Below, one piece after another: positions 6,125-14,950 of a DNA stretch of 38,542 nt. A program made the translations under genes and the position numbers. Source of the DNA: a virus (taxonomy: Duplodnaviria; Heunggongvirae; Uroviricota; Caudoviricetes); the IMG/VR virus record IMGVR_UViG_2531839531_000011. One strand, given 5' to 3'. The first letter of the stretch is position 1. Each line of letters opens with the position of its first letter. The notes under the pieces were generated by a model, which did no database searches, was not told the origin of the DNA, and saw nothing but the letters and a program-made list of their open reading frames with translations.

Positions 6125-8947
6125 ATGACGGCAGAGTACATCAGGGACTGGCAACAACCGCGCCACGCAGTGGGGCGTGAAGGAACGGGGATCCCCGCTC
6201 CTGAATCCGCGCTTTCCTCCTGGCTGGATGCCTACCGGGCAGAGAACGAGCGCCGCCAGGAAATGGCTGATGCGGCGTTCTCCGCCACGCCGCTGGGCAA
6301 CCTGATTAATAAAAGCCTGGACGCACAGGAAAAACAGGACAAAACCATCACACTGGCAGGAGACGCCAGAAAACAGGCACGCGGCGCGGTGGATGAAGCC
6401 ATGGCCTCGCTGCGCCTGCTGCCGTCCTATCTGCGCGATCCGCTTATTCGCCACCTCTCCTTCCTGCGCAAAAAACAGGAAGCCGATCGCCGGAAAGGCA
6501 AAAAGAGCTGGCAGGCTGAACGCTACGCGCGCGGAACCCTGCGCAAAATATTCGAACGTCTGGAGCGCACCGACAGCCGCTGGCTGACACCGGGTTATCG
6601 CTCCCTTGCCGGACGCGAACGCCTGGACGATTTGCTTTACCTGCCGCAGCTTAACAAGCACCAGATACAGACGCTGGCCACCATGACGGCGGCAATGTTC
6701 AGCAGCACCTTTGAGACTCTCTGTGATGGTTTCGGTGCCAGAGATGGCGAGCTGACCATGGATGTAACGCTGAAGGCGTATCAGATGCTGGCCCGCATGG
6801 CGTTACACCTGCACGCCATGCCTCCACATTATGACGCACTGACAACAGACAAAGACCGGAGGAACGAACCGGACACGGAACTGCTGCCGGGCGCAATCCT
6901 TCGCCTGACCTGTGCGGACTGGTGGAAACGCAAACTGTGGCTGTTACGTTGTGAGTGGCGGGAAGAACAACTCCGCGCCGCCTGTCTGGTTTCCAGAAAA
7001 ACATCACCCTATCTGAGCCAGGACGCGTTAAGCGAGTTTCGCGCACAGCGCGAGAAAACACGCGATTTCCTGAAAAGTTTCATGCTGGAAAATGAAGACG
7101 GGTTCACGATTGATCTCGAGACGGTGTATTACGCGGGAGTAAGTAACCCGGTTCACCGTAAGGCAGAAATGATGGCCACCATGAAGGGACTGGAACTTCT
7201 GGCCGAAGCCCGTGGCGACAAAGCGGTGTTTCTGACTGTCACCTGCCCGTCAAAATACCACGCCACAACAGAGAACGGTCATCCGAATCCCAAATGGAAC
7301 GGGGCCACCATGCGCGACTCCAGCGATTACCTGGTTAACACGTTTTTTGCGGCGGTCCGCAAAAAACTGAACCGCGACGGCCTGCGCTGGTATGGCATCC
7401 GCACGGTGGAGCCTCACCATGACGGCACCGTGCACTGGCATATGATGGTCTTTGCTCATCCGGAAGAAATCGACACCATTGTGTCCCACACCCGCGATAT
7501 TGCCATTCAGGAAGACCGCCACGAACTGGGCAATGATATTACTCCGCGCTTTAAGGCGGAGTACGTCGACGGCTCAAAAGGCACGCCAACCAGCTACATC
7601 GCCACCTACATCGGAAAGAACCTGGACAGCCACGCCGTGGATGGCATCGACCCGAAAACGGGCAAGCCACGCGTTGACCACGAAACCGGAAAATCAATGG
7701 CCGAGAGCGTGGAGCGCGCCATCGGCTGGGCGCGCCTTCACCGGGTCCGCCAGTTCCAGTTCTTTGGCATCCCCTCCCGTCAGGTGTGGCGTGAACTGCG
7801 CCGCCTTGCCAGCCAGATGGCACGCAACCCGGAAGGCCCGCAACGACTGAAGGATGACGCAATGGATGCAGTGCTCGCTGCCGCTGATGCCGGGTGTTTT
7901 GCCTCCTACATTGAAAAACAGGGCGGCGTACTTGTTCCACGCAAAGACTACCTGATTCGCACCGCCTACGACCTCGCAGATGAGCTGAACGATTACAGCG
8001 AACAGAGCGTACAGATTTACGGGATCTGGTCACCACTCATCGGGGAGTCCTCCCGTGTGTGCACGCATCCGGATAACTGGAAGCTGGTAAGACGCAAACC
8101 GGAAGCGGAAGACAGCGCCCGCGAAAATGGTTTTGACCTTCAGGGCGGCCCTGCCGCCCCTTGGACTCGTGGCAATAACTGTCCCCGTGTACAGGAAACG
8201 GACAACAACGGGACAGAACAGCCGGAAGAACGGCCAGCACCGTGGCCGCAGCTCCCTGACGGCGTTGAAGTGAACGAATGGATGCGCTCACTGAAACGGC
8301 ACGAACGCCGGGCGCTGATGCGTTCGCTTCGTGACAAACAGGCAAAAAACAGCAGTGATGAAATGCAGAGCTGGACACAGAGCCGCAAACAGCAGCGGCC
8401 TTTGCCTGATAACCACGAATTACTCGCTAAAGAATGGCGGGAGTCTGCTGAATCTCTCGGCCTGCATATCGGTGAACAGCAGATGCAGCACCTGTTACGG
8501 GGCGGCAGTCTGTACGTTGACGGCAGCATCATTGCACCGCAGGGATTTGAAATTGTACGCAAACCGGATACCCGCCCGGACAGCCGAATCACGCAGCTCT
8601 GGCAGCGCCTGAGCCGTAATCACGGCGTAAGCAGCACGGAGATCCGCCATAACCCGGTCGCCAGCTATCTGGCACAGCTGGGGGCATCAGACCCCGAAGC
8701 CGCCGCACGCCTGGCATCCACACTTCAGCAGGACCAGAACACCATGAAAACACCCGTTACCGTGCTTTCTGACATGCTGCGCGCCATCCGCGACGCAGAG
8801 TACGCACAGAGAATCTGTGAAACCACTGAACGCGCCCACCGCAAAGCAGACCTGCTGCGGGGTGGCCTGACCCGTGGGAACAAAAAACAGACAGAAACGG
8901 GATTCACAAATCCCGTAAATGAGCAAAAAACGCGCCGCGATATATGA
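6125..8947 (+). CDS. A: Replication initiation endonuclease (P2 gpA-like rolling-circle initiator) with long C-terminal extension
   Basis: 940 aa; motifs HDGTVHWHMMVF and YIATYIGK match the histidine and catalytic-tyrosine motifs I recall for GPA-family initiators. Confidence 0.85.
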   Translation: MTAEYIRDWQQPRHAVGREGTGIPAPESALSSWLDAYRAENERRQEMADAAFSATPLGNLINKSLDAQEKQDKTITLAGDARKQARGAVDEAMASLRLLPSYLRDPLIRHLSFLRKKQEADRRKGKKSWQAERYARGTLRKIFERLERTDSRWLTPGYRSLAGRERLDDLLYLPQLNKHQIQTLATMTAAMFSSTFETLCDGFGARDGELTMDVTLKAYQMLARMALHLHAMPPHYDALTTDKDRRNEPDTELLPGAILRLTCADWWKRKLWLLRCEWREEQLRAACLVSRKTSPYLSQDALSEFRAQREKTRDFLKSFMLENEDGFTIDLETVYYAGVSNPVHRKAEMMATMKGLELLAEARGDKAVFLTVTCPSKYHATTENGHPNPKWNGATMRDSSDYLVNTFFAAVRKKLNRDGLRWYGIRTVEPHHDGTVHWHMMVFAHPEEIDTIVSHTRDIAIQEDRHELGNDITPRFKAEYVDGSKGTPTSYIATYIGKNLDSHAVDGIDPKTGKPRVDHETGKSMAESVERAIGWARLHRVRQFQFFGIPSRQVWRELRRLASQMARNPEGPQRLKDDAMDAVLAAADAGCFASYIEKQGGVLVPRKDYLIRTAYDLADELNDYSEQSVQIYGIWSPLIGESSRVCTHPDNWKLVRRKPEAEDSARENGFDLQGGPAAPWTRGNNCPRVQETDNNGTEQPEERPAPWPQLPDGVEVNEWMRSLKRHERRALMRSLRDKQAKNSSDEMQSWTQSRKQQRPLPDNHELLAKEWRESAESLGLHIGEQQMQHLLRGGSLYVDGSIIAPQGFEIVRKPDTRPDSRITQLWQRLSRNHGVSSTEIRHNPVASYLAQLGASDPEAAARLASTLQQDQNTMKTPVTVLSDMLRAIRDAEYAQRICETTERAHRKADLLRGGLTRGNKKQTETGFTNPVNEQKTRRDI

Positions 8948-8989
8948 AGCGCGCACAAAACAGGCAAAAACGGGATTTCAGAATCCCGT
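8897..8989. promoter_or_regulatory. Two copies of a 20-bp palindrome ACGGGATT-N4-AATCCCGT (8897..8916 inside the A 3' end; 8970..8989 upstream of parM); candidate ParR-binding centromere/operator or terminator
   Basis: Perfect 8-bp inverted repeats read directly, spaced ~73 bp. Confidence 0.4.
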
Positions 8990-9023
8990 AAACGATTAAT
9001 TAATCAACATAAGGAAAATCGAC

Positions 9024-9983
9024 ATGAAAATTTGTATCGACGACGGCTCCACCAACATCAAGCTGGCATGGACTGAGAACGGCGAACGCCGCAACGCCAT
9101 CAGCCCGAACAGCTTCAAGTCGGAATGGTCTGCGCCGTTCGGTGGCACGCAGCCCGCAAACTACATGCTTGATGGCGTGCGCTATGGTTTTGATCCGGTC
9201 AGCGATCGCTTTGTCCAGACGACCGACACGCAATACCAGTACAGCGATGTGAATGTCATTGCCATTCATCACGCGCTGGTCAAATCAGGTATCACACCAC
9301 AGGAAGTGGATGTGGTTGTCACCCTGCCACTGAGCGAGTATTTCGACACAAACGCCCAGCCGGATATGACCAACATCAACCGCAAAAAAGCGAATGTTAT
9401 GCGCCCGGTGGAGTACCAGAACGGTGAGGCATTCACTATCCGTAACGTGCGGGTTATGCCTGAATCCATTCCGGCTGGCTTTAAAGCACTGGCTGACATG
9501 AGTCCGTTTGAATCCCTGCTGATTGTGGATTTAGGCGGAACCACGCTGGATGTGGCAAAGGTTCAGGGACAACTGGCAGGTATCAGCCAGGTGTTTTGCG
9601 ATCCACACGTAGGCGTTTCCCTGATGGCCGATGCAGTACTCTCGGTGATGGCCGCTAACGGTATGCGTACCAGTCACCACATCGCCAATACCATTATCGA
9701 ACATCGCCATGATGAAGCCTGGCTGCGCCAGCACATCCACAATGACGCGCATTACGCCAGCCTGATGGCGGTTATTCGTGAAAAGGAAGAAACACTGAAA
9801 CAACGCGTGATCCGCGCGCTGGCGGGTTTTTCGGGTTACGGGCGGGTGATGGTTGTCGGTGGCGGGGCGGAGATTGTGGCACCCGCTATCCGCGAAGCCT
9901 GCGGAGTTAATGCGACTTTCATCGCGGACGGGGTGCCACAGTTTGCTCTGGTTAAGGGGCTGTACGCAATGGACAAGGAGTAA
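9024..9983 (+). CDS. parM: ParM/StbA-like actin-fold partition ATPase
   Basis: 319 aa; N-terminus MKICIDDGSTNIKLAW and downstream blocks closely resemble recalled plasmid R1 ParM; DLGGTTLD phosphate motif. Confidence 0.8.
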   Translation: MKICIDDGSTNIKLAWTENGERRNAISPNSFKSEWSAPFGGTQPANYMLDGVRYGFDPVSDRFVQTTDTQYQYSDVNVIAIHHALVKSGITPQEVDVVVTLPLSEYFDTNAQPDMTNINRKKANVMRPVEYQNGEAFTIRNVRVMPESIPAGFKALADMSPFESLLIVDLGGTTLDVAKVQGQLAGISQVFCDPHVGVSLMADAVLSVMAANGMRTSHHIANTIIEHRHDEAWLRQHIHNDAHYASLMAVIREKEETLKQRVIRALAGFSGYGRVMVVGGGAEIVAPAIREACGVNATFIADGVPQFALVKGLYAMDKE

Positions 9984-9987
9984 ACCA

Positions 9988-10299
9988 ATGACGACTCCAA
10001 CCAGACGGATAAGTTTCTATCTGAAGCCCGCCGCCGTCAAGAACGAAGGTGAAGCATGCGCCTGGCTGGACAGCCTTACACCAGAAGCGCGCAAAAGCGG
10101 CCAACGCGTGGCTTTTCTGGCCGGGCTGGCACTTCTGAAAATGAATCCGGCAGAGGCTTACCGACTGGCTGCATGGGCTGATGATGAAGCGTTATCAGTG
10201 ACACAAACCAGGACAGAACGCCCCGCGTCACAGCCAGTATCAACCGCACAGATAACCAGTCAGATGGCCGGAAATATCCGGGCGTTATTTCCCGAATAA
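9988..10299 (+). CDS. parR: ParR-like DNA-binding adaptor
   Basis: 103 aa directly after parM with AAGGAG RBS; AFLAGLAL and C-terminal NIRALFPE resemble recalled R1 ParR. Confidence 0.55.
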   Translation: MTTPTRRISFYLKPAAVKNEGEACAWLDSLTPEARKSGQRVAFLAGLALLKMNPAEAYRLAAWADDEALSVTQTRTERPASQPVSTAQITSQMAGNIRALFPE

Positions 10300-10362
10300 C
10301 ACAACATCAGGGCGCATCCGCCCTGATGACTTTAACCCGGGAACATAAACAAGGGGGACACA

Positions 10363-10698
10363 ATGCAACACATTGACAGAGAAAAAGCGCAGCGACTGAT
10401 TGAGCGGATGGAAGCGCTGGCGAAAGAAGAAAATGTCAACATCCAAAAAATAGCTGAATGTGGCCAGATAGTTCTTCGTCGTGAAAAAGACCTCAAACAA
10501 CTGATGTCTGGCGAAACCAGCAAAACATGGACTTCAGGTGAGGAGACGATTTATTGCAGCTTCTGCAATAAATCCCAGTACGAAGTCACAAAGGTGATTG
10601 CCGGACCGTCTGTTTACATCTGCAATGAGTGCGTTGATTTGTGCAATGAAGTTATCAGGAGAGAAGTGACAGACCATGAAGAAAAAACGCATGAATGA
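10363..10698 (+). CDS. Stand-alone ClpX N-terminal-type C4 zinc-binding domain protein
   Basis: 111 aa; C-terminal block [38 protein letters not shown] matches the ClpX zinc-binding domain signature. Confidence 0.7.
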
Positions 10699-10864
10699 CG
10701 AATTTGACGGCTTTTAATTTTATCGGGGCGCACTGTCGCCCTGCATGGAGAAAAACAATAAAAAAGATGAATAACTGCTCATGTCAGACGCGCTGCGGGC
10801 AAGTCTGGCACCCTGCCCTGTCTCCGCAAAGGCTGTTGTCTTAACACGACAGAGTATGCCAGCA

Positions 10865-11272
10865 TTAAATATAATCTTCTTCGTAGTCGCTGATTAATTC
10901 ATTGCCATAATCAGACAGCAATTTCAAAGCAAAGGTAACTTCCTCAAGGGTAGCTATCCCCATTGCTGAAAACACCGTTAATTTAACCAGCAGCAGGGAG
11001 TTTGAAAGTTCGGAAGAGTTCATCATTAAAAATATTGATGCAGCCTGAAAAGCTGTGCGTTTATTCCCATCATGAAAGGCATGAGCCTTGGCTATACCAA
11101 TCAAATACATAGCAGCCAGAGCATGAATATCATCAACCCCTTCATAGTAGTGTAGTGTCCTGACGCGATTTAAAGCACCTTCAAGTAGCCCGTCATTGGC
11201 ATTTCCGCTCTGGGGTAAAGTTTCAGCATGGATACGTTCTACTTGTTCTTTTGACAAAAACACTATGTCCAT
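10865..11272 (-). CDS. doc: Doc (death-on-curing) Fic-family toxin
   Basis: 135 aa; Fic-type motif HAFHDGNKRTA; start overlaps antitoxin stop (TGATG). Confidence 0.85.
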   Translation of the reverse strand: MDIVFLSKEQVERIHAETLPQSGNANDGLLEGALNRVRTLHYYEGVDDIHALAAMYLIGIAKAHAFHDGNKRTAFQAASIFLMMNSSELSNSLLLVKLTVFSAMGIATLEEVTFALKLLSDYGNELISDYEEDYI

Positions 11273-11628
11273 CAGTTATCCTCAAGCTTTTTAATGATAT
11301 CCGCATGTTTTTCTCTTGTACGCTTCATTGCATCTTCAAAAGACAATCCTTTTTTTCTCTGTGCGACAAGAGCTGGATGACGTTTTTCCAGATCTCTCAC
11401 TGCATTTATTAAGAGTGGTTGCTTCATTTTGTTTATTTGATCCCGCAGTTTTTTGGTTTTGCCAAGGACAGCCCGTATTTCAGGACTAAGATCAGAACCA
11501 GCAAGAACAACATCCTTCCCTCCCTGCGCCGTGATAACGACACTGCCACCGGAAGAAAGGTAATCCAGAATTTCACTCAGGTTCTCACGAAATTCATCAT
11601 CAGTTACAGTTTTCATATTCATTTCCAT
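11272..11628 (-). CDS. phd: Phd/YefM-like antitoxin candidate (start may be a downstream Met)
   Basis: Small acidic-C-terminus protein immediately upstream of and coupled to doc. Confidence 0.6.
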   Translation of the reverse strand: MEMNMKTVTDDEFRENLSEILDYLSSGGSVVITAQGGKDVVLAGSDLSPEIRAVLGKTKKLRDQINKMKQPLLINAVRDLEKRHPALVAQRKKGLSFEDAMKRTREKHADIIKKLEDN

Positions 11629-12152: not shown

Positions 12153-13199
12153 TCAGGATGTGGGCGGGGTGTCCAGCAGTGCGTAAGGGTTAAAGCGGAT
12201 CACCTCTTCGCCAAGCCAGTCATTGATGTGCTTCATGGCCTCCATAACGGGCATCAGCTCGTTAATTGCATAAACCCGCGCGGCCTTCTCCACATCACCA
12301 AACGCACTTTTTTCGCCCGGCATCGCCCCCATCAGTTGCGGCGGAACGCGGTGCGCAGCCAGCACATCATCACGGGATGCCGCCTTAACATTCATGAACT
12401 CATCCTTTGCGGTGATCTGCTGGAACGGCAAAATTTGCACCCCCTCTTTGCCCCCGTTGGGCGCATGAATGAGCACGTTTTTAAATGCACCACCACCACG
12501 TGCACCCTGTAGCGTTTCCTTCAGGGAGTCCATGCTTTCGCGGTTTACCTGCGCTGCACCGATGTAGATGATGCACCCGGCGTGGGATCCATTGTCGTAG
12601 TACAGTTTTCTGAACATGTCCGCCGAATGAGACAGGCTGGCCGAGAGTAATGCGCCGAGATATTCCGGCATGCCGTAGATTTCCTGGTTAATGTCAGGAT
12701 TCATCAGGTGGCACACTTTGCCAGGGCGAAACTGAAACGCGTCCTTGCCATCCTGCACATACCACCATGATTCAAGATCGCTTCCGCGTCGCATGTATTT
12801 CGCCAGGGCGTGCCGTAATTTAAGCGGTTCGCCGAGCATATTGCTCCGAAGCTCAAGGAATGCGTTACCGAACACAAACCAGTCCAGCGCCAGCGCCGAG
12901 AAATCCTGCCGGGAAAGCAGCGGGTGCGGGATGTAGCAACTGAGCAATACATTACGCTTAAAGTAAAGCGCAGACTGATGCCAGGACGTTTGCCGGGCAG
13001 CTCTTGCCAGACCGTACCAGTCCACCGGGGTTTCATACCACCGCCCGTTATCAGCACAGTACATATTGTCCAGCAAATCATGCCCGGTCAGGCGATAAGG
13101 ACCATCAAATGTGAATGCACTGAGCGACGATTCTTTCCTGAGCGCATCAGCGAGATCAATGCGTGAACTCATGCGCACTTTTTTATTTTTTCTGCTCAT
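12153..13199 (-). CDS. Q: Portal protein (P2 gpQ-like)
   Basis: 348 aa; position and divergent arrangement with terminase as in P2. Confidence 0.85.
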   Translation of the reverse strand: MSRKNKKVRMSSRIDLADALRKESSLSAFTFDGPYRLTGHDLLDNMYCADNGRWYETPVDWYGLARAARQTSWHQSALYFKRNVLLSCYIPHPLLSRQDFSALALDWFVFGNAFLELRSNMLGEPLKLRHALAKYMRRGSDLESWWYVQDGKDAFQFRPGKVCHLMNPDINQEIYGMPEYLGALLSASLSHSADMFRKLYYDNGSHAGCIIYIGAAQVNRESMDSLKETLQGARGGGAFKNVLIHAPNGGKEGVQILPFQQITAKDEFMNVKAASRDDVLAAHRVPPQLMGAMPGEKSAFGDVEKAARVYAINELMPVMEAMKHINDWLGEEVIRFNPYALLDTPPTS

Positions 13200-14950
13200 C
13201 AGAACTCCATAACCGTGAAACGCTCGTTTTCTCCTTCGCCGCCAATCGGTTCGTTAATGACAGCAAGCATGGTTGCCCACGCAAGGTCGCCGTGGCTGAT
13301 CCCCCTCGCGCGGTCCGTTTCGTATGTGATAAAGCCGCCCGGTGTTTTCACCTTACGCACGGCGTTAAAGGCCGCGACCAGCTCACGTTCGGCGCGATCG
13401 TATTCCCACCGCCCGGCACGCATTATTTGCAACATTTTCAGTACCAGCGACCGTTTTGATGACAGCGTGAAGGTGTACGGAATAGCAGCAGGGAAAAACC
13501 GTTTCACTATCTGATAAACAGCCTCCCCGTTCCCGCCTGTCACATCAATGCCGATGTGTTCCACGTTGTAGCGACACGTGAACTCTTCAATGACTCTGGC
13601 CTGTTCTTCAAACTCCAGCCCCTGAACGCGTCGCGTCTCCACCGTTCGAAAACGGCCTCCAGGAACAGCCGGAGGAACCACCACGGACACAGCGCCGCTG
13701 TCGCCGTTTCCACTGCTGCCGTTTGCGTCATACCCAATCCATACCGGACGATTCCCCATCGGGCGGGGAGCAAAAGGTTTCCAGTCTTTCCAGTCGTCGT
13801 ATCCGTCAACACCGCAGCCAATCAGGATATTCAGGTTAAATGCCGATTCCCCTTCGCGGACAAACTCACACATATAGAGATTGCGGAACTCGTCTTCGGT
13901 GTTTTCATCACGAATTTCGTCAATATCGGTGTGTTTCCAGCCGTGATTAACCACATCTTCCAGCGTGACAATTTGCCGCCACGTCCGGTCAGGGCAGATA
14001 AGCCCGTTATGCAGCGTTTTCCAGTCCACAGAAAAACGCTGGCGTTTATGCGTGGCCTTTTTCTCGTTCCAGCGGTCGCCGTTCCAGTAGGCGTATGCCT
14101 CGTGCGTTTCGGTGGATGGCGTGGAGAAGTAGGTGCGCCGCAGTCCGCTGAGGGTTGCCATAGCGCCAGCCACCTTGCGCAGTTCAGCAAAGCGACTGAC
14201 CCAGAAAAATTCATCAAAATAAAAATTGCCCGTGTAGGACTGTGCCGTCGCAGCAGAAGTACCAAGAAAATGCAGCTCTGCGCCGTTGGAGAGGATGATT
14301 TTATCGCCCCCTTTCAGCTCCACATCAACTTCAGATGCAGCCTTCTGAATAATGCTTTTAAACTGGAACGCCTGACGACGCGACGCAGACAAAAAAATCT
14401 GGTTACGCTGGTAAGGTTGCGCCACATCGTCACGCAGCGCCATCAGCAGTGCTTCCTGTGCAAAATACCAGGTCGCTCCAATCTGTCGGGATTTCAGGAT
14501 CATCCTGTTACGTATCCCGGCTTCCCTGCAAAGTGTCAGGGAGTCAAACCAGCCCCGCTGATGCCACTCCAGCCTGCTGATGATTTTTTCCCGCAGTGCG
14601 GCAATCTGTTCCGGCGTGAAATGATTTTTGAGTTTTTTCGCCCGGCTTTTCTTTCCTGTGGCCGTCGCATCCGGCTGGCCATCATGCAGTTTTTTAAGCT
14701 GCCGGGTCAGCAGGTCTATTTCCTTGAAGTCACCACCTGTTTTATTCTGTTTTTCAGTAAGCTGGATGAGGCGCGCATCGATGGACTGCGTGACACGCTG
14801 CACGGGTGGCGTTTCATCCCACTGGTCGCGTTTTTTCCACGCATAAATCGTGTTCGGGTTTATTCCCATCAGACGTGATATTTCTGCGGGCGGATAACCC
14901 TGCCAGTAAAGTTGCCGCGCACGCTGGCGCACAAAAGCGTCCTGAATCAT
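13199..14950 (-). CDS. P: Terminase large (ATPase) subunit (P2 gpP-like)
   Basis: 583 aa; N-terminus MIQDAFVRQRARQLYWQGYPPAEISRLMGINPNTIYAWKKRDQWDE. Confidence 0.9.
   Translation of the reverse strand: MIQDAFVRQRARQLYWQGYPPAEISRLMGINPNTIYAWKKRDQWDETPPVQRVTQSIDARLIQLTEKQNKTGGDFKEIDLLTRQLKKLHDGQPDATATGKKSRAKKLKNHFTPEQIAALREKIISRLEWHQRGWFDSLTLCREAGIRNRMILKSRQIGATWYFAQEALLMALRDDVAQPYQRNQIFLSASRRQAFQFKSIIQKAASEVDVELKGGDKIILSNGAELHFLGTSAATAQSYTGNFYFDEFFWVSRFAELRKVAGAMATLSGLRRTYFSTPSTETHEAYAYWNGDRWNEKKATHKRQRFSVDWKTLHNGLICPDRTWRQIVTLEDVVNHGWKHTDIDEIRDENTEDEFRNLYMCEFVREGESAFNLNILIGCGVDGYDDWKDWKPFAPRPMGNRPVWIGYDANGSSGNGDSGAVSVVVPPAVPGGRFRTVETRRVQGLEFEEQARVIEEFTCRYNVEHIGIDVTGGNGEAVYQIVKRFFPAAIPYTFTLSSKRSLVLKMLQIMRAGRWEYDRAERELVAAFNAVRKVKTPGGFITYETDRARGISHGDLAWATMLAVINEPIGGEGENERFTVMEF

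Follow-up and report, generated by a model that had tools for sequence, protein, structure and literature searches.

The window analysed here, the whole stretch of 38,542 nucleotides (nt) in IMG/VR record IMGVR_UViG_2531839531_000011, is a P88-like (Xuanwuvirus, Peduoviridae) P2-type prophage. We focus on a small gene that lies directly 3' of its early replication operon, in the same orientation, and whose open reading frame (ORF; 10363..10698, + strand, start codon ATG, as read from the sequence) encodes a protein of 111 amino acids (aa). The protein consists of a two-helix hairpin, a linker and, at the C-terminus, a ClpX-type zinc-binding domain (ZBD), and we refer to it as the ZBD protein. 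Phages P88 (gp19) and PhiR44_2 carry the same gene. It is a real gene rather than a chance ORF, because the product matches phrog_6797, a family of unknown function, over its full length (E=4.3e-58, residues 1-105 on profile positions 5-106 of 107), because 112 of the 5426 E. coli genomes that are complete (2%) carry the gene, and because its non-synonymous divergence is far below its synonymous divergence.

The ZBD protein is a bona fide zf-C4_ClpX member but no ClpX. The Pfam model zf-C4_ClpX (PF06689) matches residues 64-99 with 62.7 bits against a gathering cutoff of 27 (E=2.9e-17), and the match spans model positions 2-38 of 39. The top relatives in a phmmer search of the PDB are the E. 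coli ClpX ZBD structures 1ovx and 2ds5 (E=2e-19 to 1e-18, residues 57-104 aligned), and E. coli ClpX gives the domain a better score (E=5e-18) than the ClpX of Listeria (2e-12) or Neisseria (3e-5) does. Thirty of 40 residues of the ZBD core (75%) are identical between the window protein and E. coli ClpX. Residues C65, C68, C87 and C90 form a C-x2-C...C-x2-C arrangement that aligns with the zinc ligands of E. coli ClpX, which we take to be C14, C17, C36 and C39 in mature numbering, and the four predicted ligands are kept in all family members aligned. The AAA+ module is absent: the NCBIfam ClpX equivalogs TIGR00382 and NF003745 reach just 49 bits against cutoffs of 371 and 359, and their match is confined to ClpX positions 6-53. 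The protein is also matched by phrog_12435 and phrog_5259, families that hold other phage ZBD proteins.

Structure prediction agrees with the profile searches. The AlphaFold2 (AF2) model has a mean predicted local distance difference test (pLDDT) score of 78.5 and shows two N-terminal helices, a low-confidence linker and then the ZBD. In Foldseek comparisons the predicted ZBD, with its treble-clef fold, superimposes on 2ds5, 2ds6 and 2ds8 with a root-mean-square deviation of 0.6-0.8 A over 38-42 residues and a template modelling score, TM(target), of 0.88-0.92. Confidence is low around residues 49-62 and pLDDT falls below 50 at residues 54-59; in the Salmonella alleles P0019 and P0123 this linker has 11-14 extra residues. 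The original prediction, made from the letters of the window alone, had called a ClpX C4 zinc-binding domain (the segment that it quoted is residues 65-94), a helical N-terminal region and the lack of an AAA+ module, and each of these calls holds up in the profile, PDB and model comparisons above.

Table 1. Features of the ZBD gene and its surroundings; positions are those of the window.
Feature	Position	Strand	Basis or remark
Replication endonuclease gpA	6125-8947	+	upstream context
ParM	9024-9983	+	upstream context
StbB/ParR-like	9988-10299	+	upstream context
G+C-rich hairpin, 10-bp stem	10305..10328		between stbB and ZBD gene
Shine-Dalgarno-like AGGGGG	10352..10357	+	5 nt 5' of ATG; read from sequence
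Coding sequence, hairpin + ClpX-type ZBD protein	10363..10698	+	equals P88 gp19; phrog_6797
Family-specific helical hairpin, residues 1-50 (helices 6-23, 27-48)	10363..10512	+	AF2 model, profile search
Low-confidence linker of variable length, residues 51-62	10513..10548	+	AF2 model, alignments
ClpX-type C4 zinc-binding domain (ZBD), residues 63-104	10549..10674	+	Pfam, PDB phmmer, structure comparison
Predicted zinc-ligand codons	C65 10555-10557; C68 10564-10566; C87 10621-10623; C90 10630-10632	+	
Acidic C-terminal tail HEEKTHE + stop codon	10675..10698	+	P88-type allele recombination junction falls here
Doc (Fic family) toxin	10865-11272	-	downstream, convergent with ZBD gene
Phd/YefM-type antitoxin	11272-11628	-	downstream, convergent with ZBD gene
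Portal	12153-13199	-	
Large terminase	13199-14950	-	

The N-terminal hairpin is a module specific to this family and occurs solely together with the ZBD. When 1.84 billion representative proteins were searched with a profile built from residues 1-57, 15 matched; fragments and one spurious repetitive protein aside, all are 109-129 aa long and have the order hairpin, linker, ZBD. Searches of Pfam, NCBIfam and PHROGs returned no relatives of the hairpin other than phrog_6797, and the profile search returned only the family itself and the spurious protein. We define the family by a two-helix hairpin, a variable linker and a C-terminal ZBD in a protein of ~105-130 aa, an architecture that the window protein shares. 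Its members reside in the early-gene regions of temperate phages of Enterobacteria, as does the window gene.

Database names for these proteins are inconsistent. P88 gp19 (L001:4964-5296) and orf93 of phage-plasmid D6 (L015:3980-4300), in GenBank and RefSeq entries for phages, and many NCBI proteins bear the name 'carboxylate--amine ligase'; RefSeq genomes name the window-type protein 'ClpX C4-type zinc finger protein'. None of the Pfam, NCBIfam or PHROG matches supports the ligase label, which is widespread, appears to be a propagated annotation error and needs correcting.

Comparison with the host gene indicates that the phage ZBD has long been separate from clpX and has nonetheless stayed close to it. 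Between the ZBD codons and host clpX, the proportion of synonymous differences (pS) is 0.76-0.95, which is saturated, and the proportion of non-synonymous differences (pN) is 0.09-0.28. Recent capture of host clpX was considered and rejected on the strength of these saturated synonymous sites and of a nucleotide identity of ~72% over 98 nt. In 12 of 13 family alleles, 26-35 of the 40 ZBD residues (65-88%) are identical to E. coli ClpX, the outlier being P0124 with 21 of 40, while hairpin identity within the family goes down to 25-45%. The ratio of non-synonymous to synonymous substitution rates (dN/dS) is ~0.1-0.5 in both halves where dS is measurable, indicating purifying selection. Since the ZBD is still 65-88% identical to ClpX although synonymous sites are saturated, the divergence must be old and selection to stay ClpX-like strong. 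The fold alone would not require so much conservation: in phages of Pseudomonas and Klebsiella, ZBD-only ORFs share just 42-49% identity with the window protein across the aligned part, so it is the surface, and not the scaffold alone, that appears to be selected to resemble ClpX. Judged from these sequence comparisons, the family is old, is also resident in phage-plasmids and does not stem from a recent clpX capture.

The two habitats appear to have exchanged sequence. Allele P0015 (L006:6001-6333) is an intragenic mosaic of a phage-plasmid-type hairpin and a P88-type ZBD. Its hairpin half has a pS of 0.77 (saturated) against the window allele and of 0.41-0.46 against the phage-plasmid allele, and its ZBD half has a pS of 0.26 against the window allele. 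The mosaic therefore points to recombination, within the linker, of P2-like phage alleles with phage-plasmid alleles.

Within P2-like prophages the ZBD gene is optional cargo. The ParM-StbB module is present in 1307 of the 5426 complete E. coli genomes (~24%), almost always on the chromosome, against 112 for the ZBD gene, and P88-like relatives that share gpA-ParM-StbB hold a different gene at the ZBD position (e.g. P88_4B11). In all P2-like prophage members examined, the ZBD gene lies between gpA and the portal gene. Divergent members, namely P0015 (53% identical), P0122 and two Salmonella alleles, P0019 (43%) and P0123, are on the gpA strand and follow a gpA of 763-838 aa without ParM or StbB. 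A role as a component of the ParM/StbB partition system was rejected on this evidence, on the unequal genome counts and on the plasmid survey described below.

Outside P2-like prophages, family members are found in phage-plasmids, both the P1-like D6 (orf93) and SSU5-like ones, among small early genes beside Ead/Ea22-like genes. Ninety-four PLSDB plasmid records match at least 80% of the protein, and those listed lie on 85-120 kb replicons of Escherichia, Salmonella and Shigella; 134 of 145 matching PLSDB records are typed non-mobilizable. We read these replicons as phage-plasmids, and no conventional conjugative plasmid carrying the ZBD gene was seen among the PLSDB matches. ZBD-only ORFs that lack the hairpin are found in Pseudomonas phage PP9W2 (gp081, 65 aa, L097:2495-2692), three genes after the DnaB helicase gene, and in Klebsiella phage ST846-OXA48phi9.2 (73 aa, L098:2501-2722), between cII and genes for O-like and DnaC proteins. 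Annotation of the Klebsiella phage passes over this ORF and lists a minus-strand ORF at its position instead.

Genes that flank the ZBD gene vary both upstream and downstream, and so the gene acts as a single-gene unit. Its downstream neighbour may be P88 gp20, a 174-aa ORF with an Ead/Ea22-like gene behind it, the Doc/Phd pair (in the window), or Ogr-like or other genes. The P88 gp20 arrangement accounts for the majority of P88-type loci in IMG/VR; there the ZBD protein ends in KKGKNA and its gene overlaps gp20 by ATGA. An obligatory two-gene operon with gp20 was nevertheless rejected, since gp20 is absent from the window and from many other loci. Further variants were seen around other alleles. 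On metagenomic contig L019 a family member (206-535) is immediately followed by a second 111-aa ORF (628-963) with a weaker zf-C4_ClpX match (E=2e-5), making a tandem pair of ZBD proteins. Downstream of Salmonella-type alleles lies a 119-aa protein starting MGWVGVDFDGVLA (L008:6493-6852 and L020:7496-7855, both on the minus strand). We read its DxDG motif as haloacid dehalogenase (HAD)-phosphatase-like, all Pfam matches being sub-threshold, and regard it as another cargo gene of the hotspot; that this protein and an 81-aa protein, both on the minus strand, form a toxin-antitoxin pair was considered and rejected.

The neighbours in the window raise the question of whether the ZBD protein serves Phd/Doc, shielding a Phd-type antitoxin from ClpXP and so tuning Doc activation, in the manner of lambda RexB. 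Lehnherr and Yarmolinsky are said to have found in 1995 that Phd of P1 is a ClpXP substrate, which would suit such a role, and the Doc/Phd cassette in the window is convergent with the ZBD gene at a distance of 166 bp. Moreover, allele P0131 (35% identical) likewise has Doc (57%) and Phd (28%) as neighbours; it comes from a P2-like phage that is only distantly related (gpA 37%, portal 31%). In P0131, however, Doc/Phd are upstream, in an order and orientation unlike those of the window, and in the window the cassette visibly replaced another gene. Doc/Phd are missing near the gene in ~94 of 112 E. coli genomes, in 34 of 38 P88-type loci in IMG/VR and in all 35 loci with the D6/phage-plasmid-type allele. 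The search seeded with Doc gave the same picture: it returned P2-like hotspots with Doc/Phd and no ZBD gene (L103, L104), seven loci with Doc/Phd but neither P2-like markers nor a nearby ZBD gene (L106-L112), and a fragmentary Doc without a ZBD gene (L114). Tested from both directions, the association is thus weak, with two lineages in which the genes co-occur in different order; we regard a role of the ZBD protein as a third component or accessory of Phd/Doc as very unlikely. The P0131-type allele had no match in one-genome-per-species contigs.

A place in the phage's arsenal of defence or anti-defence genes is a second reading suggested by position. The original prediction had put the gene in a post-gene-A hotspot, and it does open the variable region between gpA and the portal gene; Rousset and colleagues reportedly described this region of P2-like phages in 2022 as a site of defence cargo. 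An anti-defence role would also fit a decoy mechanism, for example one that blocks ClpXP-dependent antitoxin decay. The further suggestion of the original prediction, a sensor or defence role, fares less well. Neither the ZBD protein nor P88 gp20 matches a defence family in PADLOC-DB v2 at E<=0.01, and the gene has no conserved partner. It sits on the strand of the early operon and is contiguous with it rather than forming a separately transcribed module, and it is also found in the early-gene arrays of phage-plasmids. We therefore think it highly doubtful that the protein is a component or sensor of anti-phage defence, or an anti-defence protein, carried as hotspot cargo.

The immediate flanks of the gene bear traces of cassette exchange. 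Similarity to other P88-like phages breaks at ~10302-10354 (against phages without the gene) and at ~10675-10698. Similar G+C-rich hairpins (GGGCGCA..CGCCC) flank the ZBD gene, at 10305-10328 before it and at 10726-10741 after it; they may mark cassette boundaries or stabilise the transcript. The upstream hairpin has a terminator score on the minus strand only. Positions 10760-10844 hold a 27-codon remnant of the 174-aa ORF that trails the ZBD gene in other prophages, and the Doc/Phd cassette (10865-11628) replaced the rest of that ORF together with the Ead/Ea22-like gene. Since 10760-10844 is such a remnant, the 49-aa ORF at 10695-10844 is probably no real gene. Further upstream, a plasmid-type ParM/StbB partition pair (9024-10299), an actin-type segregation system, lies inside an integrated P2-like prophage. 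Ahead of it, 8900-8995 contains a 23-nt unit twice, as GGATTCACAAATCCCGTAAATGA and as GGATTTCAGAATCCCGTAAACGA, and both are inverted repeats; together they cover the gpA end and the gap of 76 bp that precedes parM, and they may be a parC-like centromere or ParR (StbB) binding site for the prophage ParM/StbB.

What the ZBD protein might do is best approached through the domain that it resembles. In ClpX, lambda O, SspB, RssB and trigger factor dock on the dimer of this domain by way of a hydrophobic pocket to which F16 and I46 belong (PMC7804408). Compared at these two pocket residues, the window protein has F67 for F16 and V97 for I46; the F16 equivalent is invariant in all members aligned and the I46 position is always I or V. 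The phage domain thus shares with the E. coli ClpX ZBD its fold, its zinc site and 30 of 40 core residues, including the pocket with V in place of I46. It differs in its setting: it stands C-terminal, after a 50-residue hairpin and a linker and with no AAA+ motor, whereas the ZBD of ClpX is N-terminal, and it is encoded by a phage gene whose DNA has diverged from clpX to saturation.

A free ClpX ZBD is not without precedent as a reagent. Wojtyra et al. are said to have used the isolated domain as an in-trans competitor in vitro in 2003. The isolated E. coli ZBD, supplied in trans, inhibits the breakdown of sigma-S by ClpXP that RssB mediates, and this recombinant competitor, a free, motorless ZBD that inhibits adaptor-dependent ClpXP by binding the adaptor (Micevski et al. 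2020, PMC7226468), works in the mode that we propose for the phage protein. The suggestion of the original prediction that a free copy could compete for degrons or adaptors is plausible on biochemical grounds. The phage version differs from the laboratory one in being a natural, selected gene with an added hairpin. That it would inhibit as the free E. coli domain does, and which proteins it would protect, we infer by analogy.

Starting from the observed domain identity, fold, architecture, distribution and selection, we propose that the gene product acts in trans and mimics the docking domain found at the N-terminus of host ClpX, a tentative assignment to which we would give just short of an even chance. 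We rank it as the best explanation because adaptor-mediated degradation by ClpXP is known to be inhibited in vitro when the E. coli ZBD is present in free form. It also accounts for a ZBD that is unusually ClpX-like without recent capture, that keeps its pocket residues and that stays constant while the hairpin drifts, and for a gene that acts alone, is specific to phages and occurs in temperate phages, in early arrays beside replication genes. The early (replication) operon of the phage would produce the mimic, whose ClpX-like surface would capture adaptors and substrates that need to dock on the ClpX ZBD. Candidate ligands would be adaptors of the SspB and RssB types, N-domain-dependent substrates of the lambda-O and MuA types, and possibly phage replication or antitoxin proteins. 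ClpXP degradation that depends on the N-domain would then fall selectively, leaving ZBD-independent proteolysis (for example basal ssrA degradation) intact, and the hairpin would probably supply a second surface for oligomerisation or target binding, raising avidity or specificity. The position after gpA, together with ZBD-only ORFs beside replication genes, suggests a link to replication; lambda O, MuA and TrfA are classic ClpX clients.

The main rival to a ligand decoy is a protein that docks on ClpX itself: the phage ZBD would heterodimerise with the ZBD of new ClpX subunits, and the hairpin, now attached to the ClpX hexamer, would become an adaptor or receptor that redirects ClpXP to a target of the phage's choosing, or a cap that blocks its N-domain. 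ClpX ZBDs do work as dimers (PMC7804408), and the residues of the ZBD core and helix (VYIC.ECVDLCN.II) are almost identical to those of ClpX. An ever-present hairpin under purifying selection also suits a second functional surface better than it suits a pure decoy. On the other hand, Wojtyra et al. and Donaldson et al., both in 2003, reportedly described the ZBD dimers of the ClpX hexamer as very stable and intramolecular, so that invasion by a free domain may be inefficient. We consider docking on ClpX unlikely.

The ZBD might instead have nothing to do with ClpXP and serve as a compact zinc-stabilised dimerisation module, the real activity lying in the hairpin, which might for instance bind a protein of phage replication, partition or regulation. 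Zinc fingers of the treble-clef type are general protein-protein interaction modules, replication and partition genes adjoin the ZBD gene, and allele P0124 has drifted to 21 of 40 identities with ClpX. A generic dimeriser, however, would not be expected to stay 65-88% identical to ClpX while the remainder of the protein drifts to 25-45%, nor does such a role account for the conserved pocket residues. The hairpin has no detectable relatives bearing other partners, and the protein is acidic (isoelectric point, pI, 5.3) with no DNA-binding signature in Pfam and sequence checks. This possibility seems to us quite unlikely.

Several points weigh against the ClpX N-domain mimic as well. Full-text literature searches found no experimental study of the window protein or of any family member. 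Ligand binding by the phage ZBD is predicted from sequence, through the two pocket residues compared (F16 and I46). Phage-plasmid alleles change AGPSVY to AGD(T/N/A)VF and also change helix residue L43 (L42 in the mature-ClpX numbering used for F16 and I46), and partner specificity may therefore differ between alleles. A simple decoy model does not explain why the hairpin is obligatory. The promoter and terminator scan found no convincing promoter of its own upstream of the ZBD gene, which is therefore probably co-transcribed with gpA-ParM-StbB.

Phage control of host AAA+ proteases has precedents. Lambda RexB, a prophage gene product that protects Phd and lambda O from ClpXP, acts on ClpP-dependent degradation of lambda O, Phd and MazE; T4 PinA and T7 gp4.5 act on Lon. 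The proposed mimic resembles these phage proteins in that it would stabilise selected proteins by interfering with a host AAA+ protease, but it has no sequence or fold kinship with them, and no Pfam or PHROG link was found. There is likewise a resemblance to the anti-adaptors IraD, IraM and IraP, small proteins that block delivery of sigma-S to ClpXP by the adaptor RssB. We know of no protein among RexB, PinA, gp4.5, IraD, IraM and IraP that mimics a protease domain. IraD and the ClpX ZBD have been proposed to share an overlapping site on RssB (PMC7226468). The anti-adaptors are unrelated to the ZBD protein in sequence and fold, chromosomal, stress-regulated and specific for RssB, whereas in principle no N-domain ligand would escape competition from a ZBD mimic. 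Closest in kind are the ZBD-only phage ORFs (phrog_12435 and phrog_5259), which are also stand-alone ClpX-type zinc fingers in early regions of temperate phages beside replication genes; they differ in lacking the hairpin, in the 42-49% identity noted above and in belonging to separate PHROG families. Full-text literature searches found no study of a stand-alone phage ClpX ZBD. A virome paper discarded a contig for carrying a ClpX zinc-finger domain, and a paper on S. aureus CxaR that came up in the literature proved unrelated. Domain mimicry as a route to protease control would thus be the new aspect.

Taken more broadly, temperate enterobacterial phages (P2-like, D6 and SSU5-type) may carry a dedicated, long-maintained mimic of the ClpX docking domain that selectively switches off adaptor- and N-domain-dependent ClpXP early in phage development, a device that would have arisen more than once; we hold this wider view plausible, at somewhat less than an even chance. 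More than one origin of ClpX-domain mimicry is suggested because phages of Pseudomonas and Klebsiella have ZBD-only ORFs, not related to this family, next to their replication genes. An early switch-off might benefit antitoxins, sigma-S or the replication initiators of the phage.

Lambda O, MuA, sigma-S and UmuD' are under the control of ClpXP, as are several antitoxins and a large number of regulators, and its handling by phages is known only from scattered cases. We expect the family to appeal to those who study ClpXP and to those who study phages: what is predicted is clear and cheap to test, and the function is one that we infer. Its reach is given by the 2% of complete E. coli genomes that carry the gene and the ~24% that carry the ParM-StbB pair marking this prophage type. 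If the reading is correct, phages would control a protease by mimicking one of its domains, a strategy not described for them, and the gene would also offer a genetic tool for separating N-domain-dependent from N-domain-independent ClpXP functions in vivo. A natural free ClpX N-domain would then be a simple, testable route by which prophages reshape host proteolysis, with possible effects on phage replication, on toxin-antitoxin activation and on the general stress response of lysogens.

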